NCBI GenBank assembly: GCA_051362555.1
Contig: CM120641.1
Span: forward strand, 16,244,001 to 16,308,000
Direction of reading: 5' to 3'
Length of the DNA stretch: 64,000 nucleotides
From: Lingula anatina
Lineage: Eukaryota; Animalia; Brachiopoda
Part shown: positions 3,122-49,164 of the stretch, one piece after another
Position numbering within the stretch: position 1 is the stretch's first letter
Layout of the letters: every line of letters begins with the position of its first letter
Notes under the pieces: generated by a model
The model's input: only the letters and a program-made list of their open reading frames with translations
Databases searched by the model: none
What the model was told of the DNA's origin: nothing
Made by a program: the position numbers and the translations under genes

Positions 3122-6100
3122 ATGGTATGGTCCAGTTTAGTTCATTTGAAGTATTCTTACGGTTTTTACGTTCTTTTTGTTATTCAGGGAAGTGGTGAAG
3201 CTATTGACTTTGAATCTGTTGTGCGGGAAAAGTAATTGATTCAAAACAATGAAAACTGTAAATGAAGCAAAGGCTAAAGTAATAAAGACAAAATCTTTTC
3301 TCTCTAGAGTGAATGATTTGAGTTCAGTGTTACTTGTACATAGTTAAGCTTGCATAAAGAGTATGGTTGTATGTTTCTTTTCCTCAGCCTAAGGCACCAA
3401 AGGCCAATATCCCAGGGCGCCAGAAACCCATCCACCCTCAAAGCAGGAAGGCAGCCCAGTTGGCCAGGCAAGCAAACCACGAACAGAGAGTTCACCGGGC
3501 TCATGGAGACCAGGCTACCAAACTGGAGGTCCTGGGAAACAAGTTACTGTGGTTCAAAGAGAACGTGGATCTCCAGAAGACAGTGTACTCCAAGCTGGAA
3601 CTTTGTTTGCTGGTTGAAGAGTATGTGGGGTTATTTTATTTTATAATTTTTATAGTTTAAATGTTGTTTGTGCCTTTACAATTTATACTGCACTTGTCAG
3701 GTAGGGTATGATGTGTGATGGAGTTAAATTCATGTGATGCATGCACTTTGCTCAGGGTATAAGTTTGCCTGTATTCATAGAATGGTATTTTATTTTGTCT
3801 CTGCAGATATCTTCATAGATTTGATGAGGAAATGGAACAGATAGAGCTTATCAAGAATAGTCTTAAAACTCGTCAAGGGGGGCAGCACATGTCAAGGGAG
3901 ACTGCTATCAAGACAACTCTTGAGAGAGACAAGAGAGAGTATGAAGAAATGGGTATTGGTATGTATAGGGCATAGATAAACTTAATCACAACACTTTTTG
4001 GGTAACTATCTCTATAGGTTTCATTTTGATGTATAAAATTTTAATTACATTGCCATTGGGGGAATTCCAAGCAAAAATTCACTTGGTTATTGTAGTTGTT
4101 CTTAACAAAGGTAAATTTTACTGTGCGTGTTTGTGTCTGTCATAAGAGTAATATCATACAGGAAAGACTGTGCTGTGAGTTAATAGTCCTGGAATGATTT
4201 ATCTTTTTATGTACAGACACAGATGTGTCTGTACATATAGCCATCATCTGCGTCTGTCGTCGCCGTCGTCGCCGTCGGCGCCGTCGTCGCCGTCGTGCAC
4301 TTTTACCGATAACACGATAAGTGGAACACCGTTTTTGCTTTTGGCTTGAAACTTACAGAACTGGTGAATATTCATAATACGCAGGTCAAGTTTGAAAATC
4401 AGCATGATCGGGTCACTTTTAGGGGATTTATGCTGTTTTTTCACTTTTTTCAGCATATATGCAGCACCGATAACACGATAAGTGGAAAACCATTTTACCT
4501 TTTGACTTGAAACTTACAGAACTGATGAATATTCATAATACGCAGGTCAAGTTCCAAAATCAGCATGATCGGGTCACTTTTAGGTAATTTATGCTGTTTT
4601 TTCACTTTTTTCAGCATATATGCAGCACCGATAACACGATAAGTGGAAAACCGTTTTACTTTTTGACTTGAAACTTACAGAACTGATGAATATTCATAAT
4701 ACGCAGGTCAAGTTCGAAAATCAGCATGATTGGGCTATTTTGAGGGAATTTATGCTGTTTTTTCACTATTTTCAATATAAATGCAACACTGATAACACAA
4801 TATAAGAAAAACGGATTGGCCAATTGTAATTATACTCACAGGAGTGGTCAATCTTACTAAAACACAGGTTGAGTTCGAAAATCAGCATAATCGGGCCATT
4901 ATTTTAGAAGTTATACTGTTTTTTTCACATTTCCTCAGATTCAATTCTTAAGCATGTTAACAGTCTCATTATTGAACTAATAAGATACGTAAAAGTGTTT
5001 GTTTGACATTTCCTGCATCTTTACAACATTGTTAGTTGATTTTGTAAAAATGAAGGTAAACTTGTTATCATGTATTGTGTAATAAAGTGTCAAAAATGGA
5101 AATAAACTCATATCATTGCAGTTTTTCAGATGCATTCATCCACTATGTTCAGAATCTCAGAATGGAGGAAGTTGGACATTTAACACTGTTCTATTGATAC
5201 TTTTCCCATCTCATCAATTTTCTTCATTGGTCATATAAAAATGGCAGTAAACTGTTTATTTTGTTTTATGTTAAAAAAGTGTTAAAAATGGAAATAAACC
5301 CATTTCAGAACAGTGCTGTCTTGTTTACATTTTGGCATTTTCAATATGTGACTTTGAAGTTCCATGGGCCTGAAGACTTTTGCTAGTTACATTTTCTGAA
5401 TAACCATGATACTAATATTTTATAATTAAAAATTGATGGTCATTATGCTGTAAAACATTATGTAATATTGCATCAAAATTTGAAGAAACCCCTATTTTGG
5501 GCAGTGCTCCCATGATGACCATTTAAGGAAAATCATGTCACTTACTGTTCTCAAACTTACAGGAAAGAAACATGGGACTAAAATACAGCTTCAGTAGGCA
5601 ATGCAGTCTGTTTGGTAAATTTTTCTGGCAATTAAACAGTTTTTTGTGAAAATTTAATTTTTCACATATTGGCATTTCCAAGGTGTGACTTAGAACCTCC
5701 ACGGGCTTGAAGACCCATGCTAGTCACATTTTGTGAAAATCCATGACACTTATATTTTATTATTAAAAATCGATGGTCAGTATGCTGTTAAGCATTATGT
5801 AATGTTGCATCAAAATAGAAGAAAACACAATTTTTGGTGCTGCTGCCTTGATGACCATTATGGGAAAACCGTGTTACTTATGACTGTCAAACTTTCAAAA
5901 AAGAAACACAGGACTAAAATGCAGCCTGAGTTAGAAAAGCAGTCTAATTGGCTTCTTTTTCTGGAAGTTATACATTTTAGTGTAATATTCATTATCTTTT
6001 TGGCATATTCATTGTGGGACTCGGAGCTCCCATGGACATGAAGCCAAATGGTAATCATATTTTCTACATGTCCATCCTATTTATGGTCAATAAACAAAAA

Positions 6101-8370
6101 TTGGTGATAATAATTCTCTAATTTATTATGTAATGTTACATCAAAATTGACAACAATCTTTTTGCACTGCTACTGCAAACATTATGAAAAGAAAACTGTG
6201 CTACTTATTATAATTTTAAACTTACAAGTACGATTTTTAGGATTGGCCTTCAGCTCATGAGAAAACCAGCTCTATTGGATTATCATGTTTATTGTATTTA
6301 TGCATTTTTTGTGAAATTTTCATTTTTCTCATTCTGGCACTTTCTAAGTATAAACTTGAACTCTGATGGGCCTGGAGCCTTATGCTTTTACTTTCGTCTG
6401 TGTTACCTGTTGTGCATAAGTTGATGTTGACTGTGCAGTTAAACATAATGTATTATTGCATCAGGATTGGTAGTCTCCTATTTTGGGCATTATGGTTTTG
6501 TGCTTTTCTTAAGGTGTGACTTATGGGCCTGAAGAACTTTGAGTGGGTCAGTCTGTAAATTACCCTTGGGTATCACTAGATTAATTTCAGAGTTATAAAG
6601 TCATTTGCTTTAATAGGCCATTAAATGAGATTACGTAAAGCACACTTGTTGATATTTCCCTGTAAACTCCCAAAGGTAAAGCTCTCTGCTAGATTAATAA
6701 TAAGGAAGCAGTGATAATTATGCAGGTAAATTTTGTTTAATATTGCAAATAAGTTATATATATATATATCAAACTGGAAGATTAAATGTTTGAATAGCAT
6801 CTTCATTGGAATTATATTTACCTCAAGCTCTGCCAAGGGGGTTATATTTTCACCCCTGTTTGTCTGTCATCCACATAACACAAAAAGTTATGGACCAATT
6901 TTGCAGAAATTTTCAGGAACTGTCGGAAGTGGGCCAAAGAGGACAATGATTAATTTTTGGTGGTGGTCCGGATCAATAATCAATCAATTATCAATAATAA
7001 TCAACAATTGCTGCCTTGGCAGAGGTCTGCACTCTCAAAGTGCTTTTCTAGTTTTGTTGTTTTCCTTTATAATTTTTTCTCAAACACTTGCATTTGTGAC
7101 TTTTAACTCTCATCTGCCTGGGGCTCTGCACATTTTCTGTATTTCTACATAAGCAGTTGTATTGTTTTTTATGTCTTTAAACATTATGTAATATTATTTT
7201 ATGCACTGTCATCATTTTTCAAATATTGAGACTTTCATAATGTGAATTTGAACTCTCATGGTCCTGAAACTGTAATCTTATTGAAGGGGTGGATTGAGAC
7301 CATCTTCTGGGTCTTCCGGAAGACAGTCAGGTTATTAACTTTATATTGACTGGTATCTATTTTTTTCTGTTGGAAGACCATCAAAATGGAGGATGGATCA
7401 ACATAGATACTTTGTAATACTGTCAGAAAATACCTCTGGGTCTGCTCCTGTTATTGACCATGTTACCCGTTGTGCAAGATTAAAATTCAGTGTTGACTGA
7501 CAGTGCTATTAAAAGCATTATTTATTATTGCATCAAAATTGACAAAATGACCTTTTTTGCATCTTTATTTTCTGTTTTTTGTCTGTACATTTGACAGCTT
7601 TGCTGCCTTGTTTCTCTTTTTTTACTCAAAGGACATAATATAAATGTGTATGGTATACATTTGGTGGAATTTTACTTATTATTTACAGAAGTGCCAGATA
7701 TCTTGAATGGAAAGAGACTGAAATATTTCAGGTGAGTTAATTTGATATTCTAAAAGATGCATTTACCGTGAATAGTATGTACAGTGCACTTCACAAAGCT
7801 TATAAAGCATACTAAGAGGCTAAAAAAACGTTATCATGCAACAACACTCCTTAACACATACTATTTGTAAGTGGCTAAATTGGAGCACAATGTAACAAAT
7901 ATAAATGGCAGTGTGATGAAAGATTTATGTTTGGGCAGTGAAGTACTTCTTCTAATTGCCAAATTCCTTGGGTAATGTTGTGACCCCATTTGTAAGTGCA
8001 AGGGACTACTTCTACATATATACCTCCAAAGAAACTCACAACATCTGGTAGATGTGTAGTTGTTCTTTGTTGTTATTTGGCAGATACATGTACATGTATG
8101 TGAAATACTTATTTATGTTTGCAAATGCATTTTGTTTTAAGGGAGTGGAATGGAGAATTACGATACATACAGAATATAAAAATGAGGAAAATATCAGCAA
8201 AGGACAAGGAACAGTGTGAGTCCAAAGCATCCCAGATGGATGTCATAGAGAAAAGAGTAGAGTTGGGGGAGTCAAATGTTAACAGCAAGACTGAGTCTTT
8301 AGAAGATGAAACAAAGACAGAAAATGTAGTGGGACAGCAGGTATTATCTCAAGTCATGGAGACTGGTTAA
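3122..8370 (+). CDS. TMA16: Translation machinery-associated protein 16, 5 coding exons, 219 aa
   Basis: Exons 3122-3124 (ATG only, then GTATGG), 3388-3620, 3807-3958, 7689-7731, 8142-8370 total 660 nt in frame. Protein MPKAPKANIPGRQKPIHPQSRKAAQLARQ...KLLWFK...YLHRFDEEMEQIEL...HMSRETAIK...GIEVPDILNGKRLKYFREWNGELRYIQNIKM carries the Tma16 hallmarks (IHPxSRKAxQL, YLxRFxxELEQI, PD...WxG). Confidence 0.93.
4305..4930. repeat. 161-bp tandem repeat, ~4 copies
   Basis: ACCGATAACACGATAAGTGGAA recurs at 4305, 4466 and 4627, and in degenerate form at 4788 (period 161). Confidence 0.9.
5330..6540. repeat. Diverged ~335-bp tandem repeat, ~3.5 copies
   Basis: The anchor TGGCA...GTGACTT..AAC/GTTCCATGGGCCTGAAG recurs at 5333, 5670, 6001 and 6335 (periods 337, 331, 334). 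Confidence 0.75.
6817..7051 (+). mobile_element. Small non-autonomous Helentron-type element nested in the larger element
   Basis: 5' TTTACCTC..CTCTGCCAAGGGGGTTATATTTTC and 3' CCTTGGCAGAGGTCTGCACTCTCAAAGTGCTTTTCTAG form an inverted subterminal pair (CTCTGCCAAGG / CCTTGGCAGAG) plus a terminal GCACT..AGTGC hairpin and CTAG end. Confidence 0.7.
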
Positions 8371-9702
8371 CTGAAAATATATAATGGATAACATATCATT
8401 TTGATAAAAAAAAAATGGAAACCCACATAATTTTATGTTCATTTCCTTGATAATTTGCAAGTCTGTTGTCACTGTTAGATCATTCTGGAAGGAAGTACTT
8501 CAACTTAATCAGTTGAAATAATTATTTATTTTATTAAATTTAGCTTGGAAACCTAATGACAAAAAGATTTTGGGAAGAGGAGAGAGTTTTACCATCCCAG
8601 ATAGCATGCACCAATGGCCCACTTTTGGGCTTCCAATGTCTTTACTATTGGGTCATCAGTGGCAGTCACCAGTAGCCCCATCAATTTTTGTTCAATGGGC
8701 CTCTGATTTTCCGATATGGCCCATTGGTGATATTCCATCAATCACCCGTCAGTCCCCCCCCCCCCCCCCCCCCGGTGGATAACAACATATGTGCCTCCTG
8801 TGTTCTATCTGGATAATGTATACACTTATTAATTGACCTTACCAGGAAGTCGCATATCACTGATTGATACTCCACTTATACAAGAAAACAATGATCTACA
8901 CAAGTTATTTTGTTTTTACTTTTTGTTATTTTTCGTTTTATTTTTTTTTCTCCTATGCATTAAGTAGGGCTACTGCATTGTACCAGTGTATGCAGTATCA
9001 ATAAGATGTTAAAAGCTCACCGATCTGTATTGATCCAGTGCCAGAATTGCTGCCGTCCCCTTTAAATTTCTGATGACTGTCTCCTTTTTCTCTTTTTTTT
9101 TCTGGGTATCAAACACACTTGCCATTTTAAAAAGCCAGACATAGTGCGAGCACATGCTTCTTGTCCTTACATAAAATATTATGGAAACAGATGATGCATA
9201 AACAAATGATAATAAAATACAACAACATAGTGAATCACAGTGATATAATATTATGTCTTTATATGCAGAGTTGTGCCATGCAACATAAATGTAAAATAGG
9301 ACTTTCTAAACCCATTTGGGCTAGTTGTAGCCTCTTGCACTCCTTGATATAAGAACAGCCTTCTCGTTTTAACTGAATGTTTATTGATCCAATCGTAAAC
9401 CAAAAACCAAATACCGTCAACTATAAAATAAAATAGAATTAAATTAAAACGTTAAAATAATGTCACGTGTGTCTGCTTTCTTTAGTTAAGTATAAGTCAT
9501 TGAACATCTCCAAACAGTAATAACCTATAACGTGTATCTGCTTTCTTATATGCCTGATCTCTTAAACATCTCGGAATACGACTATCTTATTTTTTCCATT
9601 CTCATATCACGTGTGGAAAACTGCGTTCTATCCCATAATATCAATGTAAAAACTAACATTGTGCAATGTACTCCTGACTAAACCATCCTTACTAAAACGT
9701 AC

Positions 9703-10445
9703 TTACTCAGCAATAGCTATAGGCCATTGACCCCTAGGGGAGTTTGAATTCATAATCATAACCAAAAATCCATTCTTGACATTTTTCTGAGGTAAATTCC
9801 ATTTGGATCTGTGTTGTAGAATGGGTAAGTATTCTTTCGTCCAACGTTTCCAGAAATGATCAACAATGAAGTGAACATGACGCCAGATTTTTCTGTACGT
9901 ATCAGAGAGAGAGAAATCACCCCAAGGAAGTGAAGGGTTATTTTGAAAAATCAACAAATGATTCTGAGTGAGAGCATTGAAGTTGGTGTAATCATCACTA
10001 ACCTTAGTGATGGGTCTGCTATTTATAATGTTTTTGACTTAACATGTCACTGTGACAAGATCCCAGTCCGTTAATGATCTGTTATCAACCAAAAGTGCCA
10101 CAAGTATTTTCTGGATAGTTCTAATCATTCTTTCCCAAACTCCCCCAAAATGAGACCAGTGAGGAGGGTTGAACACCCACTCCACACTCTTGCGCTTCAT
10201 GTGGTCGATGATCTTGTTTTTGGTCAGCCGTTTGAAACTAGCAGTCAATTCATTTACTGCACCAACCAAATTTGTTCCATTAACACTGAAAACTTTCAGT
10301 GGGTATCCACATCTTGCCACAAATCAGATAAATCCATTAATAAAGGCATTACTTTCTAAACTCTCTAAGATTTCAATGTGAATAGCCCTAATTTTGAAAC
10401 GTGAACACACATCCATAATGTTTTGCAGAAGCACATCCAATTTTG
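9703..10445 (-). mobile_element. BEL/Pao LTR retrotransposon integrase fragment (decayed)
   Basis: RAIHIEILESL...FIRFVARCGYPLKVFSVNGTNLVGA...WVFNPPHWSHFGGVWERMIRTIQKIL (rve core) and FWKRWTKEYLPILQHRSKW...PRGQWPIA (BEL C-terminal, DUF5641-like), broken by frameshifts. Confidence 0.9.
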
Positions 10446-10452
10446 ACATTAA

Positions 10453-11890
10453 GGTGAGACTCTACACCTAAAAATTGGAATTTTTGGACCTAGCTGAGAC
10501 ACCTCAAAATGTTTTCCAAATGTCAGGGTATGATGAAAAATATTAAAATTAACAATTTTAAAAGCTCATTATCATATAAAAATTAGGTTATGCAAATTAG
10601 GCTAATTATGCATGTTTTTGGGGAAAATTTTAAATCATTATATCTCAAAAACCATAACACCTTTTTAATTTTTTTTTTTTTTTTTTTTTTTTTTTTGCAA
10701 AAAACAACTTAAAATAGATTTTAACAGCAGGAATTCTGAGATTATAAATTAATAATAAAATTATTTGAATTTTAAAAAAATTTTATGTCTTTTGTAGCGG
10801 TCACTGATACAGAATTACCTATAAAATTGACCCCTTACTTGCAAATAAAAATACCTTCTGACAAAATGAAGAAAGAAGCATAACACACATAGTTTCCAAG
10901 TTTTATTCAGATATAACAAGCCAATTCTAAGATATAAGCTCATGAATTTTACGATAAAGACCAAAAATGCAATTTCGAGATTTTTACATTTTAAAGTTTT
11001 ATTTGCATTATAAATGCATAGTGACAGGGGTCTTCATCCAGGTTTTATATTTTTGCACCACTGAATAAAGAGGAAATTATTTGCAAAGCCCAAGGCATAT
11101 ATTTGTGGTGTTTATGAAAAAAATAAATCTAAAAACTGTCTTTGGATCAGGATTGGTAATGGTTCCACATCTGAGGATGTTCAATTTATAGTCATTATAT
11201 TTTATTTTATCAATTTATTTTCAAACTTTTACATTTTGTACATAGCACTTTATTATTCATTTAAAATGCCCCTGCTGCATATGTTGGTCCTTCTTGGGCC
11301 TCCTGCACAGCTAAACTTCTTTTCTTCTGCTTGTTTTTGACTTTCCTCTCCTGGCATGCCCGGTAGTCAGCTTGCAGGTTGCTCTTTTTCATTGGCAGCT
11401 CATTTGCCCTAGCCAGAGAGGCCATGCAGATTTCTGTTGGTTCTTCAGCCATGTTTAGCATGACTTGAGCAAGATGCTTGTTACCTCTATTGAACTAACC
11501 AACAGCTAGGGCAACTGCAGATTCCACTCTGTTCTTCCCAGCAAACAGGGTTTTGGGGCAATGAATCCAGATTAGATTATTTAGCGATTCATTGGCATTG
11601 CTGATTTTCCCATGGGTCATTTTTTTGAACAAATTTTCATCAGTCATTCTTTTATAAATAGGCACAAGGACTGATTTATAGGACAAGTAGGTAGAATTTT
11701 TTCCTTCTTGTGGTGGGGGTTCTTCCCCTTTAGCTATAGCTCTGTTGTAAAAACACCACGAGTCCTAACCCATGGGGCACCTGCTGTGATGTGGACCATC
11801 ATCAGTGGACATAGAGTGAAACAATGTGGCCCATATGGCATCCTTCATGGCATGGAGATCATGCAGATTACTCAAAATAGCTCCCCTACA
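10453..11890 (-). mobile_element. 3' half of a Kolobok-type / Mutator-like DNA transposon with one terminus
   Basis: Remnant peptide MKDAIWATLFHSMSTDDGPHHSRCPMG*DSWCFYNRAIAKGEEP...PIYKRMTDENLFKKMTHGKISNANESLNNLIWIHCPKTLF...EGPTYAAGAF*. The element ends at TTAA|GG (10449-10454), the target and terminus pattern known for Kolobok. Superfamily assignment is from memory. Confidence 0.7.
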
Positions 11891-12049
11891 GTATTCTGTT
11901 CATTTTGCATTCTATTTTTTCTATTTTATTTTATTATTCTTTATCTCACTACATATTTAATTTTTAAAAAACCCATCATATCTGAAAATCTATGCTCCAA
12001 ACATTGATAATATAATTTTAAAAATTAACAATTTTAAAACATCCAGTAC

Positions 12050-12308
12050 CTGAAGTGAGATTTTGTTACACCAAAACACTGCTCTATACAGCTTCAGGTC
12101 TTTGTATGATGTGTTGTACCTTTCTTCTGCCCTGTTTGCTGGGTTTGCCTTTGGTGTCAATAAATAAGGAGATAGAGCATAACCACTATCCCCCAGCAAA
12201 TACCCCTGGGGCATATCGCCACTGATCAATTTTTCAAACAACATGCTATTGTGGAATACAAAGGAGTCATGGGCACTCCCAGGCCATCTTGCTGTGACAT
12301 TGGTAAGT
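12050..12308 (-). mobile_element. Harbinger/PIF transposase (DDE_Tnp_4) exon, catalytic C-half
   Basis: LTNVTARWPGSAHDSFVFHNS...GYLLGDSGYALSPYLLTP...AEERYN...IEQCFG, bounded by an acceptor (ttatttcAG, 12310-12309) and a donor (GTACTG, 12049). Confidence 0.88.
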
Positions 12309-12375
12309 CTGAAATAATTGAGAAAAAATTCAAAACACTGAAAAACAGAGATGCTGTCAGAAAAAAGCCACAGAG

Positions 12376-13300
12376 GATGACTTCAAGCCTTGATCCCGAG
12401 ATTGCCACATACTTTGTTGCGTTTACATTCTCAAATTCTGCCTTATGTCCTTCTGTTGTCTGTCGGTATGCTCGGGACAGAGTGTCTGCTAGAGTCATCT
12501 CTTTGCCAGGTGTGTACGATACAGATGCATTGTATTGCTGCAGTCCCATAAGCATGCTCTTTTTGGTGCATTAGCCAAAGGCTTCTTTATGATGCTTTGT
12601 AATGGCTTGTGGTCTGACATCACATTAATCTGACGACCGAAAATATACTGATGGAACTTCTCAGTGCTCCATACAATCGCCAACATCTCCTTTTCTATCT
12701 GAGCGTACCTTGTCTCTGTATCGGTGAGTGCTTGACTGGCAAAGGCTATCAGCTGTCCTTCTTAGAGCAAGGCTGCCCGAGTCCAGTTTTGCTTGCATCA
12801 CACTGGATGGTCAGCTCTTTTTCTGGGTCATAATAGCGCAGAATCGGTGCTTTGCTCACAAGTTTTTTCACCTCTCGTAGTGCCTTGTCTTGAACACTGG
12901 ACCAGTTCCATGGAACATCTTTTTTTATCAGCTGCCTGTTTGGTCCCATGGCATCAGATAGTCTTGGGAGGAACCTAGCTAGGTAATTGACAAATCCGTT
13001 TAGTTGCTGCACTCCTTCGACATCCTCTGGTCTCTGCATCTGCATCACCGCTTCCACTTTCTTCGGGTTGGGCTTCAAGCCTTCATTGGTGATCAGATGT
13101 CCTAGGAAGTTGACTGACTTCTGGTGTAGTTTCATTTTGTTGGCATTTAGACGTATGCCCAATTCTTGACATCGTTTCAGCAGATTTCCGAGTTTCTCGT
13201 CATGGTCTCTTAGAGCTTCCTGGTCTGTTTCTCCTGTTCCATAGACCATTAGGTCATCTGCGACGCAGATCACACCATCTAAACCGTGGATGCATTCATC
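12376..13300 (-). mobile_element. Ty3/Gypsy pol fragment (RT C-half and RNase H), frameshifted
   Basis: GVICVADDLMVYG...DHDEKL...GIRLNANK...VNFLGHLIT..GLKPNPKKVEAV...APILRYYDPEKELTIQCDASKTGLG; MLAIVWSTEKFHQYIFG...DHKPL; YTPGKEMTLADTLSR. Confidence 0.93.
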
Positions 13301-13304
13301 AAGC

Positions 13305-13635
13305 TTCCATGTATGAAATACTATCTGTAAGGCTGTATAAAATGCCATCCAAATCTCATGAACCTCTTTCATTGTGTATTGAGGGGATTATTATTTCTTG
13401 AATTTTTTTGAGCTCTAATGTTCTTGTAGTGGATTTGCTAAAATAACGAAACAGTTCCTGTAATGTATCTTGAAATACATCCTTTAAATTAGAACACCTT
13501 CAGCTGCCTTGGCTGAGCACAAGTTAAGTCTATGTGTCATACAATGAAATGATATGCATTGTGGACTTGTGTCCTAAAATTTTGTAGCCACACCACTCTG
13601 TGACCCAGTCTTGATTGAGGCGCCATCACTGAACA
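13305..13635 (-). mobile_element. hAT transposase catalytic fragment (ZNF862/ZMYM1-like)
   Basis: Reverse-strand translation FSDGASIKTGSQSGVATKF*DTSPQCISFHCMTHRLNLCSAKAA contains the hAT D-G-A...GV...H-C-x-x-H-R-L-N-L motif. It is not in the ORF track because of stops. Confidence 0.8.
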
Positions 13636-13871
13636 GTGAACAGTGGCCCATTTGCAAGATTTTGTTATGTAGTAATTTGTTACAGATACTAGTATAATCA
13701 TGGTTTACCTATTATTATTATTGTTTATTTATCTTTTTACGTTACATTATATTTTATGTAATGTTTAATAAACATTGTGTTATATTCTGATTCTTAGTAT
13801 TTGGACTAAATATTTAATCGGGCAATGGGCCACTGTTCAAAACAGTACATGTAATTACAGTCATGTAACTT

Positions 13872-14667
13872 TCAAGTCACTGTGGATATTCTTATGTGCT
13901 CCAGGATGTTTTGAAATGGATTATCTCCCAAAGAAAGGCCCCACATGAACTCAGTCATATTACTTTCCAGCTGGGACCTGGCTGTCCCACTCTTCTTTTT
14001 GTTTTGCCTCTTGGCCCTCTGCCACATGTTCTCTACAAGTGTTAGGGTGAACAAAGTTGACTTGGTGATTCACTGTCAAGTGTTGATATCCCAGATTGTC
14101 TATAGTGTTATAGGCTGCCCACAGGTCTGACACCACTGTTTTACCTGGAAGAACGAACTGTTGCAACATTGGTAACAGGGTGGCAGCACTGTTATGTTTC
14201 TGACGAACAAAGTGGGATTTGTCAATCTGAACTGTTCTCCCAGGGCCTTCTATTCTCCATTGATTGGTGACAAAATATTGAACACATATATCTCAAAGAA
14301 AGTTCCTCCAGTCTGTGAATGTATGACTAGACCAGGACATCTCATGTTGCACCCTTATGAATGTACACTCTTTATATGCCCAAAAGTATATAAAGTTCAC
14401 AATGTTGCTTATTGATAGCTTGCTGCCTTGAGAAAAAGTGCCCTCGCGAATTGAAAGTTCTCTGCGACAAGGTCTGGGGCATGTCTAGCGGCAGTTGTCT
14501 GATGTGTTACCTCCATCAAACAGAACCATTTGGTTTCCACATTTGGGACAGATCTTGTTATTAGCAAGAAGGCCATGGTGCTGGCACCAAGCTATTGTAG
14601 CTTGGGTAGTGGTTGTTGCTGCTGACAACTCTCTGAATGTTAGAAGACTTGCATCTAGATAATTCAT
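13872..14667 (-). mobile_element. Merlin / IS1595-family (ISXO2-like) transposase remnant
   Basis: AWCQHHGLLANNKICPKCGNQM (Zn ribbon), QFVLPGKTVVSDLWAAYNTIDNLGYQHLTVNHQVNFVHP, VENMWQRAKR...LESNMTEFMWG, with frameshifts. Confidence 0.88.
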
Positions 14668-15298
14668 CTTGGTGACTGATAGAAGTTATGAAATTGGGCC
14701 ATATTTATAGTGAAATTCTGAGAACAGGATGTCCTTCTGATTCTCATAGTGAATCAAAATTAAAGTTGTAACTTTTTGGAATTGAGAAAATCTTGATGTC
14801 TTTGAAAGATTACCATATACATGTATTAGTTTGATCACGTGAACTTATGTTGAATATAGAAAAAGAAGTTTATGACAAATGGACAATCTATTGCATAGTG
14901 TAATTAAGACGACAATTTACATGCAGGATTTTGGGGCCATTTGGTGGGAATCCCGCAATCGAGAGCTCTGGGAGCTTCTCTGGAAAAGTGCTTGGTATAT
15001 GCTAATGGCAAGACGTGATAAAATGCTCAATTATAAAAATTATGTATTTTCATAACAGCCACAAATCATTTTGTCAATTTCTCATCCTTCTATAATAAAA
15101 AAACTGCTAATTAATACAACTTTGTTCTTATATCCATTGATGGTACTTCGTGTTTGTTAAGGAATTATATTTTACATTCTCCTTTAATTACCAAAATAAG
15201 TCATCCCCATTATAACTTAATATAGAGATTGAAACAGTTGTGATTGCGATAGTAGTGTAAAGGTAAAATGTAAACATTAAAACGAAAGTTGCACTTAC

Positions 15299-15845
15299 CT
15301 AAGTGTGGAATCACCCACAGCCTGTATGTTTAGTGCATGATAACCCTTGCAGCAAACCTACAGATTCTCCTCTCTGTGTGGTGCAACTATTGGAAATAAT
15401 GTAACGTCTATAGCCCCAGTCACATTTGGGAAGCTATCAATGAGGTGAAAACCACCCTTCAAGGCTCTAACCTGGGCTGGGGTTCACAGAAATCTGATGG
15501 TTAATGCAGGGTCGCTGCTCTCCAAGATGGCTCCCACCACTTTGTGGACTGAGCAAGAAACAGAGGCAGTGGAGATCCTAAGGCTACCTCCAATCACAGC
15601 CTGAAAACTCCCTGTTGCAACCACGCCAAGACAGGCAAGGACTTGTGTTGGGGGGCAGGGCTTGGGATCTTGCTGTTCTATGCTGCAGCTGGCCTTCTAT
15701 CTTCTCCATCAGCAGTCTGATGCCCCTCTTGGATAGCCTGTACCTCCTCAGCACACCCCTCTCTGTCAGCTCTTCCAAAACGTCTCATTGAGGCATGTAA
15801 ATTCACCTTCTTTCATTACAAACAAAAAGATGAGCGGCAGCCATT
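15299..15845 (-). mobile_element. Harbinger/PIF (HARBI1-like) transposase exon, N-half
   Basis: RRYRLSKRGIRLL...QLQHRTARSQALP...ATGSFQAVIG...FPNVTGAIDVTLFPI...KGYHALNIQAVGDSTLR, followed by a GTAAGT donor at 15298. Confidence 0.85.
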
Positions 15846-15889
15846 GCGCTACATGATGAAATGTTATTACATTTATTTGATGGAAAGAT

Positions 15890-16085
15890 AAGACCTAGAT
15901 TGATATTACATTTGAAAAGTATCATTGATAGCACTTTTACGCCTTCTGCAGTAACCACCTGGACAACAGTAAAATGTTTCTTTCTGGCACCAGTTAAGAT
16001 TATCTTCACATCTTTCTCACAGTATCTTTGCAGGGAGAAGAGCATGGGTACCTCGTCCATGTTTATTACCATGCTGGACACCTCT
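15890..16085 (-). mobile_element. pogo/Tigger DDE_1 transposase fragment
   Basis: VINMDEVPMLFSL...EKDVKIILTGARKKHFTVVQVVTAEGVKVLSMILFK matches the pogo N-M-D-E-x-P ... F-T-V-x-L...G-x-K-L-P-P-M-x-I-F-K pattern. Confidence 0.82.
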
Positions 16086-16094
16086 CGTAGGTAC

Positions 16095-16220
16095 CTATGG
16101 TAGTGGGTATGCGAACTTCCTTGTCTTGGCACTGAGTGCCCTGTAATCAACACAGAGTCTTAGTCTAACATCTTTCTTTCTAACTGAAACCACAGGCGAT
16201 GCATATGGACTGCTTGATTT
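16095..16220 (-). mobile_element. Ty3/Gypsy reverse transcriptase N-terminal fragment (~40 codons)
   Basis: [40 protein letters not shown] matches the canonical S-P-x-x-x-V-x-K-K-D-G-x-x-R-x-C-V-D-Y-R-x-L-N...Y-P-L-P. Confidence 0.88.
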
Positions 16221-16364
16221 TTTGCCAGCCTTACGACAGAGAATGCAAAACATAACATTGTTCTTTGAATCATACTCTAGCCATGAAGAGTGTAATTTCA
16301 GCCAACTTGGCTGGAATTTTCTGTGAGTTTCACATGTACTAGTAGGGATAGCAGAGGATATCAT
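16221..16364 (-). mobile_element. hAT-type N-terminal zinc-finger fragment (ZnF_TTF-like)
   Basis: [30 protein letters not shown] (R-x-F-x-x-x-W...W-L-x-Y...F-C-x-x-C). A hAT-like terminus CAGAGTTGCCAAC begins at 16381. Confidence 0.7.
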
Positions 16365-16689
16365 TTCACAGCTAGTATTGCAGAGTTGCCAACCTTAGCT
16401 TTCATAAAATCAGGAGCCAAATAAAAAGAACAGTAATTTCAAACAAAAAACAGTATCATTAAAAATATCTTATATTCACTCACAGAGAGTACAATCCATG
16501 ATAATAATTATCAATATCTACAGAGCAATCTACAGAGCATCTTTCTGAACAATTCATTGGCGTGGTCACTCGCCGCCAGGGAAATGTTGTGTTCTATAAG
16601 GAAATCGGTGAACGAAAGCTCCTCTCTGGTGACATTTTTCTGAAATGCGGTTTCTCAGTTTGTAAAGGCTAACAACCAACCAGAGACGT

Positions 16690-16870
16690 GTTTTTGTGAG
16701 CCCCATGATTCAAATGGACTATAATGTCTGTTGCAACCCCCCCTTAGATTGACAAATCTTTGTCATATACCTGACAGTACGCAAACAATTTCCCCTTTTT
16801 CGAAGGTTTAATTCACAGGAATGTCTGACTCCAATCACTCTGGTACTTATGTGTGATTTTCTTCCAGTTA
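16690..16870 (-). mobile_element. hAT transposase N-terminal BED-like finger fragment
   Basis: Reverse-strand translation KKITHKYQSDWSQTFL*IKPSKKGKLFAYCQVYDKDLSI*GGVATDIIVHLNHGAHK resembles the K-Y-x-x-x-W...A-x-C-x-x-C...S-I-x-x-G-G-x-x-D-I-x-x-H...H-K hAT N-terminus. Confidence 0.65.
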
Positions 16871-17914
16871 GCAGCAGGTACACTTACACCCTCTGTCTCA
16901 CATTGGTGAAACTACAGAAGAAAAACTAACTTCCGAAATTATGGCTGTTTATTGCGGGCAAATATTTGGCGATTCAGAGTCGGTGATTTGAAATGAAATA
17001 AAGCTTTGACTCATATATCAAAATCAATAGGATAGTGTTGTTTGTTCAATGCTTATGTAAGATGAATTCCACGAACCCCAAACTACTAGTTTTTATGTGC
17101 AGTTAGGCCTGCGACAAGGAATTCATTTTCGTCACTTCTGACAAGTATGCTAAATGGTGCGGGGCGCGTTCCTTGATTAATCTCTGCATTGCTCTGGGCA
17201 TGCTCTATATAATCCCTTGATGCAGTCAAGCAATACATTATTATTATTATTATTATTGGCATATTATAAGCTTGGTGTAGTATCCAATATCTTGACAAAC
17301 ACCTTAATCTTTTCTTGAGACTTTTATTGAATCACCACAATGAATACGTTCTGAAATAATAACAATGAAAATACTGTTAACTATAACTACACAAATAAAG
17401 TTTAAAATAGACATGTTCTTATCTTGTTATGAGATACTGAAACATCTATGCTTTACTTTCTTTACATAACCTACATGCATGTATACTTACAGGGGTATAT
17501 AATTGAATATCACTCTTATAAATTTAATTTTCATACATGCATTACAAAGCTTAAAAGAACAAAATTTAACTTAATAAATAAGCAATAATATACATAAGCT
17601 AGCAACTTACTAGACTTGTATAACCTCTTGAACTTGTAATAGCTTAAATGAACTTGCAGTCTCTTACAGTACACAAGACTTGTAAAACATGACATAAATA
17701 ACTTTGACTGCTGACCTGGACTTTTGTCTTTTTTTTAACCTTCTTTATACATGTACATATGAGGTGTCGCATGTCCTCCGTGATTCTGTACGTGTCGCTT
17801 CGTTAGTTCTCTTTGAAAACCTTAAACTTGTTCCTTGTCATGGAAAACATACTCAACACGTGCATCGTAAGTCAGCCATATTTTCCTTGCGACCTGGACC
17901 TTGACCCTGTTTCG

Positions 17915-18840
17915 TCAGCAAGATTGTTTCTGCAGGGCCCAACTAATGCAATCTACATTTAGACTTAACACTTGGAGAGTCCAGTCCAAGTGACAATGGC
18001 TATCGAAAGCGGGGACTCCAATTCCCATCACTACATCCACCGCTGTTGTCCGTTGGAGACCTGCAGGCACCTTGAAGTGGTTGAGCCATAAGTCCTGCTG
18101 GGCTGGGTTCATGCATGAAGATAACTTCAGCACAGCTTGACAATGCACAAGTGCCTCCACAGAGTTTGCTGGCTGAAGGGTTTCTTGCTGGGATAGAGTG
18201 GCACCAAGCTCTTTTCAGGGGGCTTGCTCGATCTAGCCATTGGGCTTCGCCAAACCCCCTGATTTTTTAGGCCAAATTTATCACCTGATGCAGATATAAA
18301 ATAGCATAGGTTTTCAAAGGGTTTATTAATGCTGAAAATCAGCGAGGTAGCTCACTCCAAAGCCCTCACTCTGAGGGCCACAATCTCAGGGACTGTACCC
18401 AAACCCTTGTCAAAAATATCAGGAATATGTGTCATGGCATTAGCTTTAACTGCAATATTGGGGTTATTACATCCAGGATCTTGACATTTGGTCATTTTGG
18501 GTCCAACCTTAGCCACTTTTAGGCTAGGCTCCCCCACAGACTCAGTCAGAGACTCTCGTTTCTGAGATTCCCCAGATGCAGCAACAGTCGTTGGCTTCTG
18601 CACGGATTGACCTGACTTCGATGATTTTGATGATTTAGGTTTTCTTTTCTTACTCCTGCGTTTTCTCGGTTTGGGATTTCTCCTCCCTACTTCTTTCAGA
18701 AAAGGGAGTTTTTTCCGGCTTGGGATACTTTCCCGACTGAATTGGCTTTCTCCCCCGTATTTGGAATAGAAGAGAAGGAGAGGCTCATGAGAGATGGAAT
18801 TGGCCTTTTGTCCTGTTTTCTCAATTGGGGTACTTGCCAA
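17915..18840 (-). pseudogene. Disrupted ORF with a TatD-like metal-binding N-terminal motif, probably TE-derived
   Basis: A Lys/Ser-rich region and C-x4-C...H (18352-18840) precede VPAFDSHCHLD (18007-17984; D-x-H-x-H as in TatD DNases). Stops, frameshifts and truncation just after the motif. Confidence 0.45.
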
Positions 18841-19938
18841 ATTGAATGGGCTTCCTCTCCCATACTTGCAGAACCTTGCTTTCCGGCTTGGGATACTGGC
18901 CCAAATGAATGGGTTTTTGTAGCAGCACGCGTCTTTAAATAAATAAATAATAAAAACTGCATCAAGTTGGTGGTAAAATCTTTATTCCCATTCGGTTCCG
19001 ACAAAATATTATTCCCGTGGAACTAAAATAAACATAAAACATACATGTAGTCCTACGAACACATACGCTGACATGGAAACTTCTTAAACTAACAATAATT
19101 CTAAAATTGAGTGATAAACAACTTGTAAATCGAGACGATAACTTCAAAGTTTTGATTTCTAATAAAAATAATAATATAATGAAAGATTAAATCTTGATTT
19201 ACCTCGTTTGGGGCCTAAACCTTCTAAGAGCGTCGGACGCGTGCCGCCGTCAAGTAAAAGCTAAGTGACACTACGTGGCAGCACTATCGGATCCAATATA
19301 CAAGAGAAGCGCATGCGTAGTTACTGTTACAGTTTTCTCCCCTGAACTAACAAAAAAAGAGTAGGGTGAGTTTGTGGCAATATCCGCCAAAGCTGCCAGT
19401 CTACTACCCTCCATTGAGAAAACAAGTCTTGGGGATTTTTTCTGAAAGAGAATCATGGGGCTTAGGACTCCCTTTGGAAGCAGATCCATCTAAAGATCCA
19501 AGCAATTCCGAAGAATTGCAAGACTCCGCAGAATAGACCTCCTCCTCCAGGACGTCCACCTCCATGGCCTCTGATGTTGGAATTGGTGTGGCATTCCCTC
19601 CTCTCCCAGACACCACAAAAGAGGTTTGGGTAATGTTGGGGTTGGTTCCCAACCTTATATGCCTGACTGGTCCTGAAAAAGTTCTTGATTCCCCAGTATA
19701 TCTGGGTCATATTGGCTTCTTGGGTTTCCCAGGATTAGGTGGGAGCTTTGAGATGTATTTTTCCACCCAATTTTTAGAGGAAATCCCCTTGGAGAGTACT
19801 TCAGACGCTAAGATGCACGGCCACGAATAGTACTCACCCTTCTTCTTATCTTTGGCCATTTGGGTCTTGCACAGGTCCACAATGTCTAGTACTGACTGTT
19901 GTGTCTTGTCAGTATCTCCGGGCAGGGCTTCTACCAGA

Positions 19939-20250
19939 TCATTGACAAATGCCCCAGGTTGGATGGCTGGAAATATGCGGTAATTCTTTCATGTGGCCAG
20001 CTTTAATATCACTTCTAAGAGCTGCACAAGCATTAGTCTGTTGCTTTTCAAGGTCATTTTTCATCTTAAGTTTCAAACACTCACCAATGACAAGACCTTT
20101 TTTCTTACAATAGTTACAAGTTGGAAGCAACCCTACACCCTGTGAAGCTTCTAAACGTCCGTACTTTTGAGGGGGTGTAGAATCACTATGACATGGTGAC
20201 TTGGGACTTGTGGGTTTGGGAGACTGAGACTCTTGAAAATTTCTCTTAAA
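19939..20250 (-). mobile_element. LTR-retrotransposon gag zinc-knuckle fragment
   Basis: PTCNYCKKKGLVIGECLKLK is C-x2-C-x4-(H>L)-x4-C, preceded by a Ser/Pro-rich linker. Confidence 0.6.
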
Positions 20251-20858
20251 ATAATCTGAATATTTTAAAATGACACCAGTCTGATTTCTGGACAATAAAT
20301 ATTTTCTTATGAGTGAAAAAGTAAGTATCTGAGATGACTGTGACCTCTTCAAGAGTTTCAACATATTTATCCTCTAAGGGACCATTTACACGAAAAATCT
20401 ATTTTCTAAAAATCTAAAAATCTATTGGTGGTATCTTGTGATCATGGTCTGTGCCCTGAATTCCCTGTGGCATAATTACTGGCAGCACGAGCAAGTTACT
20501 TCCAAAGCTGTAATTAATTCTCGGCTGTGCTCGGAAGAGATTCTGACACCTTGACGCATGGGCAGTAGTATCTCTAAGCTTGTTGAAACATTCCCTGTTG
20601 ATAAAAATAGCAAACATTACCTTTCCCAAGACCAGACCCAAGGGGTACTCTGACCTGTAACAGAATGTTGTTGGTGACACTGCACTGGTGACCCTTCAAA
20701 AGCAACCCAGTGATCTGCCATCCTGGTTGGTGTTAACTTTACAACACCAGTGGTCTACTGTTATAATACTTCCATTTTTTATACTATTTTAGAAGTCTCT
20801 GATATCAGAGAGTGCCAGTGGCATAACAGAGGCAGGCCACCCGGACTACCAGTATGCC

Positions 20859-21691
20859 CAGGGATGCTAGTGGGGTCCGGAAAGAAAACCTGACCTTTTT
20901 TTTGGCAAAGACCGGGGGGGGGGGGGGGGGGTACAAATTGATTATGAAACAATTACTATATTTCAATTTTTATTTAATAAATATATTGCAATATATGTCA
21001 TCACAACTTCATGGTAATTTTCAACAGTTGTTTCCAAGGATAATCTTGACATTGACAAGATGGAAGTGCCATCAGTACATAAACACCTACCACCCATAGT
21101 AGACAGTAATGATCCCTCACGTAAGCAACAACTACGTGCTTTGGCATGCTTAGTTGTTTTAGCATGGTTTTTCAGAGCTTTTTTACCACTGCTTCCGCAC
21201 CGGATCACGTCGTTGGACCATACACACCAAGCTTCTCCGGGGGACTTTCGCTTCCGAACATAGGTAGAAAAAAAATCGTCATTATTGTCCTTTTCCTCCA
21301 GCCAACTCCAACTAAATCTATTTTTGACAGTAATGTCGATGTTTCTAATATCGTCTGTTCCCCACTCCGCGAAATCCATTTAGTTTGGTTTAGTTCAAAA
21401 TTCCGCGCACGCGGTGTCAAAACTTTCCACATGGGTGCCGACATTAAAGCCTACATTTCCAACCAATCAAGCGCCATAAATAAATCACGTGCTACGGTTG
21501 TGACTAGATATTGTGTTGAAACGCAGCTCTGTCGCAATGGTTGAAATGCGACGTTCCTCTGACGCATCGTTCGTCCAGTCCGCGCCCACGTTAAAAACGA
21601 GAATTCCGGAACAAAATATAGTACCAGAAAATTTTATAACTGGACGCAAAAAACCGGAATTCCGGTAAAAACCGGAAGACTAGCATCCCTG
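20859..21691 (-). mobile_element. Intact 833-bp non-autonomous hAT element (internal-deletion derivative) with 6-bp TSD
   Basis: TIRs CAGGGATGCTAG (20859) and CTAGCATCCCTG (ends 21691); direct repeat TATGCC at 20853-20858 and 21692-21697. Internal minus-strand ORF KNRFSWSWLEEK...VRKRKSPGEAWCVWSNDVIRCGSSGKKALKNHAKTTKH is a hAT transposase N-terminus. Confidence 0.88.
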
Positions 21692-23889
21692 TATGCCACC
21701 AGTGGCCCACTGGCAAATGCTATCTGAGGTGTTTATATTTCAACAGAAAACACATACTATAGAAATTACTACACAGAAAAAATTTATTGCTAAAAATATA
21801 TTACATTGTATAGCACCAGATATTTTGACTATAACAACCAAAATTAAAACAATATAATACATGAGTTGCACTTTCGAATTCAGAGATGATATATGTTACA
21901 ATAGATTTAATAAATAATTTTGTTTTGTTTGTTCTACATACAGTGAAAAAGAACAAGAATGCTGCTTTGGTACAACAGTTTGTTAGTATAATAATGTTTA
22001 TGAAATATATTGTGCTTACTAAATTATTTGATGTCTGTAAGATATGTTGATAAATAAATATGAAAAGTTCAATTTTTTACTATGGGAACTTTGTCTTTTT
22101 AAGTATTTATAACATATTATCTAAAACATGCTGTCATTAAATGATGCATTATTGAAAAAGATCACATTGCAAGCATTTTGGCGAATCCAGTTAAGCTTAA
22201 GGGAGGAGGCACATGGGCGAAGCATTCTGTAAAATTGCTTTGTTATGTCTCTATTTATTATTATACTTTTTTGTTGGGGGGGGGGGGTGGGGGGTGGGAG
22301 GGGGTTGGGGTGGAAAGGAGATACCCCTTAAGTTAGGGGAGGGGCATCTGCCCACTGTTCCCCCACTAGAGCCACCAATGAGCATGTAAATATGGAGATC
22401 AATTTTGTTTTCTGTACAAATATGATGCATTGTTGGTTTGGCACAAAGTAATTGGCAATAAACACTGATACATGTCATATAGCTTATCCTTAAAGACTTT
22501 ACTGTTATGGCATTATATAAAGAAGGCGAAATAGATGGAATAAAAGAGGAATTACTTTGAAATGTCTTTTTAACTTTTCATTGAATATGACATAAAACAA
22601 TAGAAACCTGACAGCAAGACTAACTTATGAAAGTAACCTATTTATGATGATTTTTTAACTTGGTTTGCATTTTGGGCCCTGCATTTTTACCAAACAAGAC
22701 TTCCCAATTTTATGAAGTTAAACAAAATACAGCTGAGCAGTTATAGTCTGGATGAGGTAGGTGGCTGAGACAGATGACATGAACAGAAAATAATGATTAA
22801 GATAAATGCAGACACTTACAGTTGGCACATGTTGGTCTTGTGCTAGATAAATTGTTCAATATTAGGTAAATGTTTTTGTCTGCCAGTGATTGTCAGATGT
22901 ATGTACTTTCCAGTATTTATATTATGATATGATAACTCAAAATTTTCATATGAAATAATGTGAAGATGAGTGAAACGCTATTAAATTAAATAAGATTAAT
23001 GATTTCCAGGTATAATCCAGTTAACACATTTTCCTAGGAACACGTATTCATACCATATTAGTAATTGATGAGTAAATGACTAGATACTGATGCTATATGA
23101 CTAGAGTTTGGATCAAACATTTGACAAAAAAATGTGAAACTTTTTTTACGTTCCTATATACAAATATATCAGAGAGATTAGTGGATTATTCATAAAGTGC
23201 AAGAAACTCCATCACATTAGAGATAAACACCAAGATACGATATAAATAATGTTGTGAAAAGTGCAGCATGCAGAATTAAGACATCAGACTATGGACCTTC
23301 TGGATTAATATTTTAAATATCTTACAGGAATTAAAACTTAGATCCTGACACATGGTATCCCACTTGCACACTTCCCATTCATCATGATTACAATACCCAG
23401 GACTATAATATACTATACAATTGCTCATTAGCTGTAATACGTGTCTCATCAGTGTCTTCCTTGTTTACTATGATGGATGTTTGATTGGACAAACATCCAT
23501 AGCCCTTTGAAAAATGTACATTTGTCACTCAAAAATTAAGCCGACCATAAATTACAGGCCAGTGTTATCACCACATAAAAGCATCCTCAATTTAAAAGTT
23601 TAGTGGCAACCAACTTCAGTATATGTCTCTGTGGTTTTCTTTAAGGACTGAATCTCTGCATCTGCACATAAAGAAAATGAAAGATATGGCAGTAACATTT
23701 TCCCAGTCCATTCCCATTGTTTAAGTTAATTCAAAAATTGTCTCATGACAACAGCCAGCAATTTATTCCAAGTGTTTCTATTGCAATTAGCTTTTCATCA
23801 TCATTATTGCCAGCCATGCCTTTAAGAGTGGGGACAGCCGTATCTTCCGAAGACTGTAGGAGCCAAGTTAAAAAATCGACTGCTGTTTT

Positions 23890-25655
23890 GAGGGCCTGAT
23901 ATTCCAAAGGCCAGAAGGTCCGATATTCCAAATGCTTTTAGTCCAAGGATATGCTACGGTAATTCTCCAATCTATACGAACGCCGCAATAATTACGAACG
24001 AAACGTTTTTTCTCTGAATCTGAATTTTTTGTCTCCGTTCTGTACGAACGATCACTAAACTCACCTTGGGCACAATTTAAATTTTCCGAACGCCAGAAAG
24101 TGTGCCCAATTGAAACTCGCCCCATGATTCGTCAAAGCGAGTTTTCAGACCACCGTTCCAAACAAAGGAACTGCCACTTGACAGGAGAGATTGTTATCAT
24201 GTATTTGTGCTGTTTTTGAATGAGACGATAGAAGGACTCAACCTGCCCGCCGGCAGCTGCAGGCCAGTTTTAAAACCCTGTTGTTATTTAGAAATTATTG
24301 AAAGCATCAGTACACATAAATTACTTACTGTTTATTATCATTTCTTAACTTCTGCCGGCCGACTGGATCATCAACATCCACCATCGGTGTTTCACCGATA
24401 ACTGGTTTCCAGTAAAATCTATAAACGTGAAACCCACGCACAACAGAAGAGTATGAGAAATCCATAGTCAATGATCGAGTTTTTCTTTGTTTTTGGTAGT
24501 CATTAGGAAATTAAATTTTTTAAGAGGAGTTCTGTCTTGTATTGTATTTATTTTTCTAATTTGAGTTGTGATAAAGTTCATGTTTTTTTGTTTGTTTGTT
24601 TGTATTACTGATATTGGTGATTGTGAAAAATAAAGATGCCGTATGACTTTATACAAATTTGCCTGCAGTTTTCTGTATTTTTTCTAATTAAGTTTACATT
24701 GATTGCGTGCAAATTAATATGCTGTAAAAAACTTTCATAAATAGACGTGAATTGAGCTGATGTTATTTTTTATATCAAGTATAATCTCTATTAACGTCAG
24801 TGATATCTACTGTGAGGAGTTTCAAGTATTTTGTTTTGGCGGAAGAAATTTTATGTAGGCCTAATGGGGGGGGGGGGGGGGTGACATTATTAATATTGCA
24901 AATTTTCTATATGTGAAATCATATTAAAAGTAAACACGCATTAAATAAAATATGCAACTGGATACGCAAATATTCTTGTCTGTTTTTGACAGAAGTTGGG
25001 AAAAACGATGTTGTCCTGTCTTGGTAAAACATAACAGGGAAAAACGATGTTGTCTTGTCTTGGGAGAAATGTACCTCTTTAGTATGAAGAAATTGTTTCT
25101 TAACTTGAATTCCCGACTTTTGTTTAGTTTGTTTTAATTCATTGCAATATCGCAAGAATAATTTGTTTGTGCTAAAAGCTGATCACAGTGATTTAATCTG
25201 AAAGTAATGCTTACACTTAGCAATGTATGTAAGTGGAGATAACTTCCGGTACAGCCGTATTCCATTCGTATTTCAATGGATACGAACATGTGGCAATTTT
25301 TAGCAGACTGAATTTCAAGCCTTACGAACAAAATGATTATCTTCCAAAAATAATTAATTTAAATCGTTCGTATAGATTGGAGAATTACCGTATTCTGAAA
25401 AAAGTTATTAGCCGCACTTAAACGCAATGGTATTACTTGCATGTGCAGAGAGGCGCTTTTAACTATTTTATGCTATGACATTTTCTGCTCTCCCCTGTGC
25501 CATTTTGTTGTCTTCACTCATGTAATTTGGCTCATATACTCAAATACATATAGCAGACCCTCGTAATAGGGGACCCTTGGATGAATGGTACCTTGGAACA
25601 GCGGTCCTTCAGAACAAAAGCCCCCCTGGAACAAAAGACCTTCGGAATTTAGATA
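23890..25655. mobile_element. Probable non-autonomous DNA element with inverted arrays of ~17-bp units, downstream of the kinase stop
   Basis: Left end has GG(T/C)C..ATATTCCAAA units and right end has TT(C/G)GGAA....GACC units in the opposite orientation. The interior is CpG-richer than the flanks. A related short array lies at 37370-37500. Confidence 0.45.
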
Positions 25656-25915
25656 TGCACCCCTAAGGGTTAAGGGCAACAATTTGAAGTTCCCAAGTTT
25701 CAGTGTTATTGGCTTTTGTCTGGAGGGTATCCATTTCTTCCCATCTGTTTCTGTTCTGCAATTGTCTGGCCATTGGAGATTAAGCAATGCTCCACACTGT
25801 CGATTGATCCCAAACCATCTCCTTCGATTAGGTCTTTTGTTGAAGCGTACTGAATACAACAATTCCACTGGAAGTTTTTTTACTTTTTTACCCCTCCTTC
25901 AGCTGATGTACAAAG

Positions 25916-49164
<23,249 letters not shown>

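Follow-up and report, generated by a model that had tools for sequence, protein, structure and literature searches.

Read-through clusters of PIWI-interacting RNAs (piRNAs) have been described as core clusters in four mosquito species (Qu et al., 10.1101/2022.08.22.504762) and as piC-DoG clusters in mouse, human and hamster (Konstantinidou et al., PMC11615739). Here we compare them, as far as the accessible text of these and the other cited sources goes, with a transposon block at 9.65–21.7 kb of a 64,000-nucleotide window from the brachiopod Lingula anatina (GenBank assembly GCA_051362555.1, contig CM120641.1, positions 16,244,001 to 16,308,000; the window is the whole stretch analysed and supplies all coordinates below). 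With moderate confidence, we interpret the block as a predicted read-through unistrand piRNA cluster whose antisense precursor comes from the adjacent gene Tma16. It shares with the mosquito core clusters an intergenic position directly behind an expressed, co-oriented coding gene and foreign sequence in antisense, and we list their polyadenylated precursor and the normal termination also seen for their host genes as a further likeness (10.1101/2022.08.22.504762). The mosquito clusters are enriched for non-retroviral viral elements and were defined by small-RNA and chromatin data, whereas the block contains pieces of DNA transposons and long terminal repeat (LTR) retrotransposons and is known from sequence and long RNA. 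Dense antisense fragments directly downstream of an intact spliced gene are shared with the piC-DoG clusters, as is, probably, read-through past its poly(A) site; these clusters differ in their content of long interspersed elements and endogenous retroviruses and in their length, which is often over 50 kb (PMC11615739). For the slug Arion, the same source describes a unistrand antisense cluster and, in its accessible text, links read-through to mammals only.

Flamenco and the flam-like clusters likewise hold fragments in one orientation, antisense to a single long precursor, but flamenco itself is non-coding, has a discrete promoter, is dominated by Gypsy elements and is active in ovarian follicle cells (van Lopik et al., PMC10643416). 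A first-pass annotation of the window had called the block flamenco-like. The one-orientation antisense layout agrees with this, but the label is imprecise: the block lies directly behind the coding gene Tma16, from which its RNA apparently comes, and is not dominated by Gypsy, with DNA transposons accounting for five of the eight supported pieces (the others being two Gypsy and one BEL). A read-through cluster is the best reading and fits better than a copy of flamenco. The mixture of DNA transposons and LTR elements, which the same annotation considered unusual, has a precedent in Lymnaea, whose clusters show enrichment of Gypsy, Kolobok and hAT (Jehn et al., PMC6128900). The snail and oyster clusters described resemble the block in their enrichment for Gypsy, Kolobok, hAT, BEL and Harbinger and in their size of 2.7–17 kb; they differ in being rich in young elements, whereas most pieces of the block are decayed (PMC6128900, PMC11067994). 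The accessible text of PMC6128900 contains neither 'strand' nor 'read-through', and that of PMC11067994 does not contain 'readthrough'. In flies, antisense insertions in 3' untranslated regions (UTRs) suffice for piRNA output (Rafanel et al., PMC13226689). The BEL piece of the block is similarly antisense within the extended 3' region of Tma16 in RNA-seq run X1; the fly insertions are single and recent, whereas the block is a layered archive of 12 kb. Literature searches, covering mainly open-access papers without their supplements, turned up no account of the Tma16 locus, and none of read-through clusters from molluscs, annelids or sea urchins.

Orientation and content of the transposon block

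Decayed coding pieces from six kinds of jumping gene were densely packed at 9.65–21.7 kb, between the convergent 3' ends of Tma16 (+ strand) and a cGMP-dependent protein kinase (PKG) gene (− strand), neither of which the first-pass annotation had mentioned. Eight pieces were supported by search tools: BEL, Mutator-like, Harbinger (its exons counted once), two Gypsy, Merlin and two of hAT type. All eight were on the minus strand and none on the plus strand. Confirmed coding pieces totalled approximately 3.6 kb within the 12 kb. The features of the locus are as follows (RT, reverse transcriptase; ORF, open reading frame).

3122..8370, + strand, Tma16 gene, 219 aa, intact (exons 3122–3124, 3388–3620, 3807–3958, 7689–7731 and 8142–8370)
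8371..12860, + strand, 3' extension of the Tma16 RNA into the block (depth in run X1)
9655..10461, − strand, integrase end of a BEL/Pao-type LTR retrotransposon, interrupted by stops (DUF5641, 1e-17 and 2e-19)
11264..11899, − strand, Mutator-like transposase (named Kolobok-type by the first-pass annotation), last exon with splice acceptor (12 relatives, E down to 9e-48)
12041..12308, − strand, Harbinger transposase exon 2 (DDE_Tnp_4, 2e-9; matched by 70 of 150 exon 1 relatives)
12376..13310, − strand, Gypsy RT end and RNase H, frameshifted, in the Harbinger intron (RVT_1 and RT_RNaseH, 3e-20)
13320..13700, − strand, probable hAT catalytic-region piece, weak, in the Harbinger intron (E 2.5e-4 at 13514–13696)
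13963..14700, − strand, Merlin (IS1595-like) transposase remnant, in the Harbinger intron (DDE_Tnp_IS1595, 3e-9; NF033547, 3.5e-6)
15299..15800, − strand, first exon of the Harbinger transposase, with a GT donor at its end (765 relatives; DDE_Tnp_4 in 12 of 12 tested)
15914..16097, − strand, pogo-like piece as named by the first-pass annotation, unconfirmed (no Pfam or NCBIfam match)
16098..16220, − strand, Gypsy RT start, about 40 codons (Ty3 RT 4OL8, 2e-6; weak matches to four Gypsy ORFs)
16221..16325, − strand, hAT-type zinc-finger piece (zf-C17orf113, 4.9e-7, barely above the cut-off)
16500..16870, − strand, hAT-like N-terminal piece assigned by eye, unconfirmed (no tool match)
17900..20000, − strand, ORFs of 99, 209, 100 and 93 aa without a family (none found by Pfam, NCBIfam and relative searches)
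19942..20260, − strand, gag-like piece, likewise named earlier, unconfirmed (no match)
20859..21691, − strand, young, internally deleted hAT-type element with a 138-aa minus-strand ORF (13-bp inverted ends, 6-bp target duplication)
25900..49160, − strand, PKG gene, convergent (Pkinase, cNMP_binding); boundary of the locus, not a member

We take DUF5641 to belong to BEL/Pao, and the zf-C17orf113 family is presumably linked to hAT. Against PDB, the BEL frame gave chance matches only. The 12 proteins related to the Mutator-like piece shared 35–47% identity with it, carried PF20700 in 11 cases and occurred in multi-copy clusters. For the Gypsy RT–RNase H piece, 273 related metagenome stretches were found (best E 7.7e-101), of which 80 were kept. 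Among the named relatives of the transposon pieces were sequences of a limpet, a mussel, a tubeworm and fishes; viral-contig scans and a first metagenome scan gave no relatives, and Harbinger exon 1 had no match among plasmids or in PDB. The part of the Merlin remnant above 14292 was assigned by eye. The hAT catalytic match at 13514–13696 was to an ORF of locus L018 that bears Dimer_Tnp_hAT (7e-5), and is weak (0.08 after correction for 309 queries). Between the hAT-like and Merlin pieces, a 203-bp unit (13637–13839) with 16-bp inverted ends, for which no target duplication was found, is likely a miniature element.

The combination of inverted ends and target duplication in the 833-bp element (20859–21691) occurred in none of 20 shuffles. 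Its 138-aa ORF (Atlas 0.97) had zf-BED and GT2D2 finger clusters among its matches, and a homolog search with 20966–21379 found none. The minus strand at 17900–20000 consists of about 2 kb of GC-richer ORFs with a CpG-rich patch at approximately 19150–19400, which may be the start region of the element itself. Sequence and Atlas searches found no homologs of 17918–18214, and a possible Gypsy linker of 75 bp (18367–18441) had an uncorrected E of 0.002.

Two tests of strand bias were strand-blind. One was the set of Pfam scans; the other was tblastn over the whole window, with libraries of 150 Harbinger proteins, 63 Mutator-like proteins and the 309 ORFs of 80 Gypsy loci. The searches that supported the Mutator-like exon, the Gypsy RT start and Harbinger exon 1 were aimed at minus-strand candidates; they raise the count and are not strand-blind. 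Among 130 stop-to-stop ORFs of at least 45 aa at 9.4–22 kb (65 on each strand), five sites matched transposon families in Pfam, and every one of them was on the minus strand. No further family was detected by Pfam on either strand among 141 ORFs of 28–44 aa (80 of them plus) or in six-frame translations with stops read through as X (9.4–12.0 kb, 13.3–17.3 kb and seven candidate stretches). Neither Pfam nor tblastn with the three libraries revealed a missed plus-strand piece, although plus-strand pieces of families outside both would escape detection. Twelve plus-strand matches of the Gypsy library were rejected as mirror frames of one and the same Gypsy piece. Outside the block, none of 283 ORFs of at least 50 aa had a transposon family and the libraries gave no match, in agreement with the earlier statement that the rest of the window has essentially no transposon coding sequence.

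For eight co-oriented pieces, the two-sided P is 0.008, or 0.004 once Tma16 sets the direction; for the five pieces from blind Pfam alone, it is 0.06 (two-sided). The clustering of seven pieces within 12 kb has a P of 0.0003. The first-pass annotation had placed every fragment on the minus strand and derived a P of 0.0005 from 12 pieces. The uniform orientation held for the eight supported pieces; the P was overstated, because the pogo, gag and 16.5–16.9 kb hAT pieces were recognized by eye and are unconfirmed, and the hAT match at 13514–13696 is weak. It had also described the fragments as mostly conserved catalytic regions. Their predominance may be a detection bias, because without a species library only conserved regions are recognizable.

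Antisense RNA and its link to Tma16

Four of nine RNA-seq runs, all nine of long RNA, were aligned to 2901–22800 at 95% identity. The strand convention was set by reads across Tma16 joints, all with the first mate on the minus strand (29/33/38 reads in X1, 11/6/5 in X4 and 22/12/7 in X5). Run X7, which was unstranded and nearly blank over the block, was excluded from the strand sum, as were the bins from 20165 up; in bin 20165–20828 the opposite-strand depth was 0.34, 0.62 and 0.64 versus 0.70, 0.97 and 2.06, and poly-G reads swamped 20829 onward. Across 9541–20164, 98.8% of the bases pooled from X1, X4 and X5 belonged to plus-strand RNA (approximately 200 reads versus 2–3), which confirms the earlier prediction of a transcript running opposite to the fragments. 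The proportion was 97% when just the distal part was counted.

Tma16 was identified by Pfam (Tma16, 2.5e-14 and 1e-9). Its model has four GT-AG introns and one open frame of 219 aa, so both coding sequence and splicing are kept, and RNA joints supported three of the four introns, indicating that the gene is expressed and spliced. The stop codon lies at 8370 and the first transposon piece begins at 9655; the block thus starts 1.3 kb behind an expressed, co-oriented gene, and Tma16 is the likely driver of the read-through RNA. In X1, depth was about 14 without a break from the last Tma16 exon through the BEL piece to 10.2 kb and faded by 12.8 kb (14.4, 14.3, 14.7, 7.2, 3.6, 1.7 and 0.3 in consecutive bins over 8213–12860, with zero on the other strand). 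Set against joint counts of 29–38, this depth suggests, as a rough inference, that in X1 a sizeable fraction of Tma16 molecules reaches into the block. Beyond 10.9 kb, sparse plus-strand RNA occurred in X4 and X5 (7 and 14, respectively, of the 16 bins of 9541–20164). None of the 15 joints listed, out of 101, connects Tma16 to the block. The RNA data establish the strand, and neither piRNA production nor one continuous molecule. Read-through from the PKG gene was rejected as the cause, since its product would be minus-strand RNA, of which there was almost none.

Nesting and age of the insertions

The two Harbinger exons form one gene, whose intron of 2,990 bp runs from the GT donor (15298) to the AG acceptor (12309); in 59 of the 70 relatives that matched both exons, the two abut residue to residue. 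Within the intron, and likewise on the minus strand, lie the Gypsy RT–RNase H piece, the Merlin remnant and the probable hAT piece. Since the intron of a single Harbinger gene holds co-oriented Gypsy and Merlin pieces, orientation was fixed repeatedly in place, which indicates that the block was built up in situ. The nesting of later pieces in this intron makes successive arrival at the DNA level most likely, and the splice sites kept in the Harbinger and Mutator-like pieces argue against capture of spliced mRNA for these two. Several joins between internal coding pieces are seamless; for example, the hAT finger is in frame with the Gypsy RT start. The CpG observed/expected (o/e) ratio was 0.10–0.51 for the older pieces, compared with 1.07 for the 833-bp element with its intact ends, which is consistent with layers of differing age and long methylation of the block. 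CpG depletion of the block resembles that of gene bodies (0.30 at 9.65–16.7 kb, 0.34 in Tma16), and there is no clear island at its start.

Neighbouring sequence

The window is animal DNA with a GC content of approximately 35%. The last coding exon and stop of the PKG gene lie near 25.9 kb. Non-coding repeats do occur outside the block: the Tma16 intron 3959–7688 contains a 161-bp array (4305–4932) and a 337-bp-spaced family (5303–6386), both multi-copy and non-coding, and the PKG intron region 41376–41995 contains a 163-bp array (41675–41995). An 86-nt inverted match joins 7285–7370 (Tma16 intron) and 40071–40156 (PKG intron). The intron repeats of both genes draw many RNA reads from elsewhere. 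CpG o/e is mosaic across the window, at about 0.2 at 26–42 and 59–64 kb and 0.6–1.1 at 43–55 kb, as expected from gene-body methylation. Between the block and the PKG stop, 23700–25500 is CpG-normal (o/e 0.90) and is possibly a promoter, a small gene or a young repeat. On the plus strand, 58604–60200 holds exon-like ORFs of another small gene, without a Pfam match at E 0.001. No Rfam families were found at 8–26 kb.

Discussion

The block combines what is found in unistrand clusters, namely dense fragments in one orientation and a long one-strand RNA antisense to them (here at low depth), with what is found in read-through clusters, namely a start directly behind an expressed, co-oriented gene whose coding sequence and splicing are kept. 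The case goes beyond layout alone, since it also rests on strand-specific RNA and on a likely driver gene. We propose that in some tissues polymerase would pass the normal poly(A) site of Tma16 and transcribe to about 21–22 kb. Cleavage of the resulting plus-strand RNA, which is antisense to the fragments, would yield piRNAs, and these would silence related transposons. Antisense insertions would be retained because they yield guides, and deletions would then wear them down to internal pieces.

Several observations weigh against this interpretation. Continuity between Tma16 and the block was seen in one run, X1, and only to approximately 12.8 kb; X4 and X5 were near zero at 8877–10868 and yet had plus-strand RNA beyond. 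This library difference may reflect a choice of poly(A) site that depends on the tissue, an allele that is divergent or deleted here, or a second start. Distal depth was low (0–1.7), as ordinary leaky termination would give, and the depths come from about 5–6% of each stranded run, with reads from paralogous loci possible. AATAAA is not depleted on the plus strand (20 versus 15 on the minus strand), and the T-richness of the plus strand is not significant (P 0.40). The pieces are decayed, no active near-identical target has been demonstrated, and neighbouring pieces may not be independent insertions.

The alternative that survives best, although we consider it unlikely, is that the leaky 3' zone is a mere transposon graveyard, uninvolved in piRNA production, in which sense insertions were purged and antisense ones tolerated. 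On this view, sense insertions would be lost because their poly(A) and splice signals disturb the Tma16 RNA. Low distal RNA depth suits such ordinary leaky termination, and an orientation bias of retroelements within transcription units is well established. A graveyard would explain the strand, but it leaves unexplained why coding pieces are concentrated here when approximately 23 kb of PKG introns, and a further 14 kb past them, have none. The pieces are mostly internal and extend as far as 13 kb beyond the stop codon, and the AATAAA count given above is not what purging of poly(A) signals would leave.

A wider reading, which we regard as doubtful, is that read-through clusters behind housekeeping genes such as Tma16 are a general defence design of animals, not confined to mosquitoes and mammals, and that they gain content by active capture of short internal transposon coding pieces instead of by insertion of whole elements that then decay. 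In the block, such captured pieces would be those of 40–300 codons that lack ends, are fused seam to seam and are nested in the Harbinger intron.

Slightly less credible still is a unistrand cluster with its own promoter near 10.5–10.9 kb, in the style of flamenco, with Tma16 giving just a long 3' UTR in some tissues. The broad plus-strand coverage of X5 beyond its gap at 8877–10868, and the same gap in X4, are what a separate start would produce. Yet X1 RNA spans this gap unbroken, 10–12 kb has no CpG-rich start (o/e 0.34 and 0.09), and, with individuals diverging by several per cent in this region, the 95% cut-off or a deletion allele could make the gap. Poly(A) selection, moreover, favours the 3' end (10.1101/2022.08.22.504762).

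Very improbable is a single composite mobile element of the Helitron or Pack type that took up the fragments in the same orientation as itself before inserting behind Tma16. Many pieces adjoin without recognizable ends, and Helitrons can capture fragments in co-orientation. Strict patterns nevertheless found no hairpin-plus-CTRR end on either strand, and the block is not flanked by inverted ends plus a target duplication under those patterns, although decayed ends would escape them. No host-gene fragments were recognized, the 833-bp piece has its own ends, target duplication and a different CpG age, and the RNA expected from a composite element is minus-strand. It is hardly credible that nested insertions in a tolerant intergenic gap came to be co-oriented by chance: just eight pieces are tool-supported and the window was picked for looking odd, but the strand and clustering P values speak against it and the direction agrees with the independent RNA result.

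We return to the probable read-through cluster, with Tma16 as its likely driver. The read-through design itself is already published, so the surprise is moderate, and the block is probably an additional member of a published cluster type. If it is such a cluster, it would extend the read-through model to an invertebrate outside the insects, and would provide a compact case of 12 kb in which the driver gene is named, read-through varies with the library and the order of insertion can be read. Were the capture reading true, piRNA loci would have a spacer-like acquisition step. The locus would bear on how piRNA clusters arise and gain new targets.

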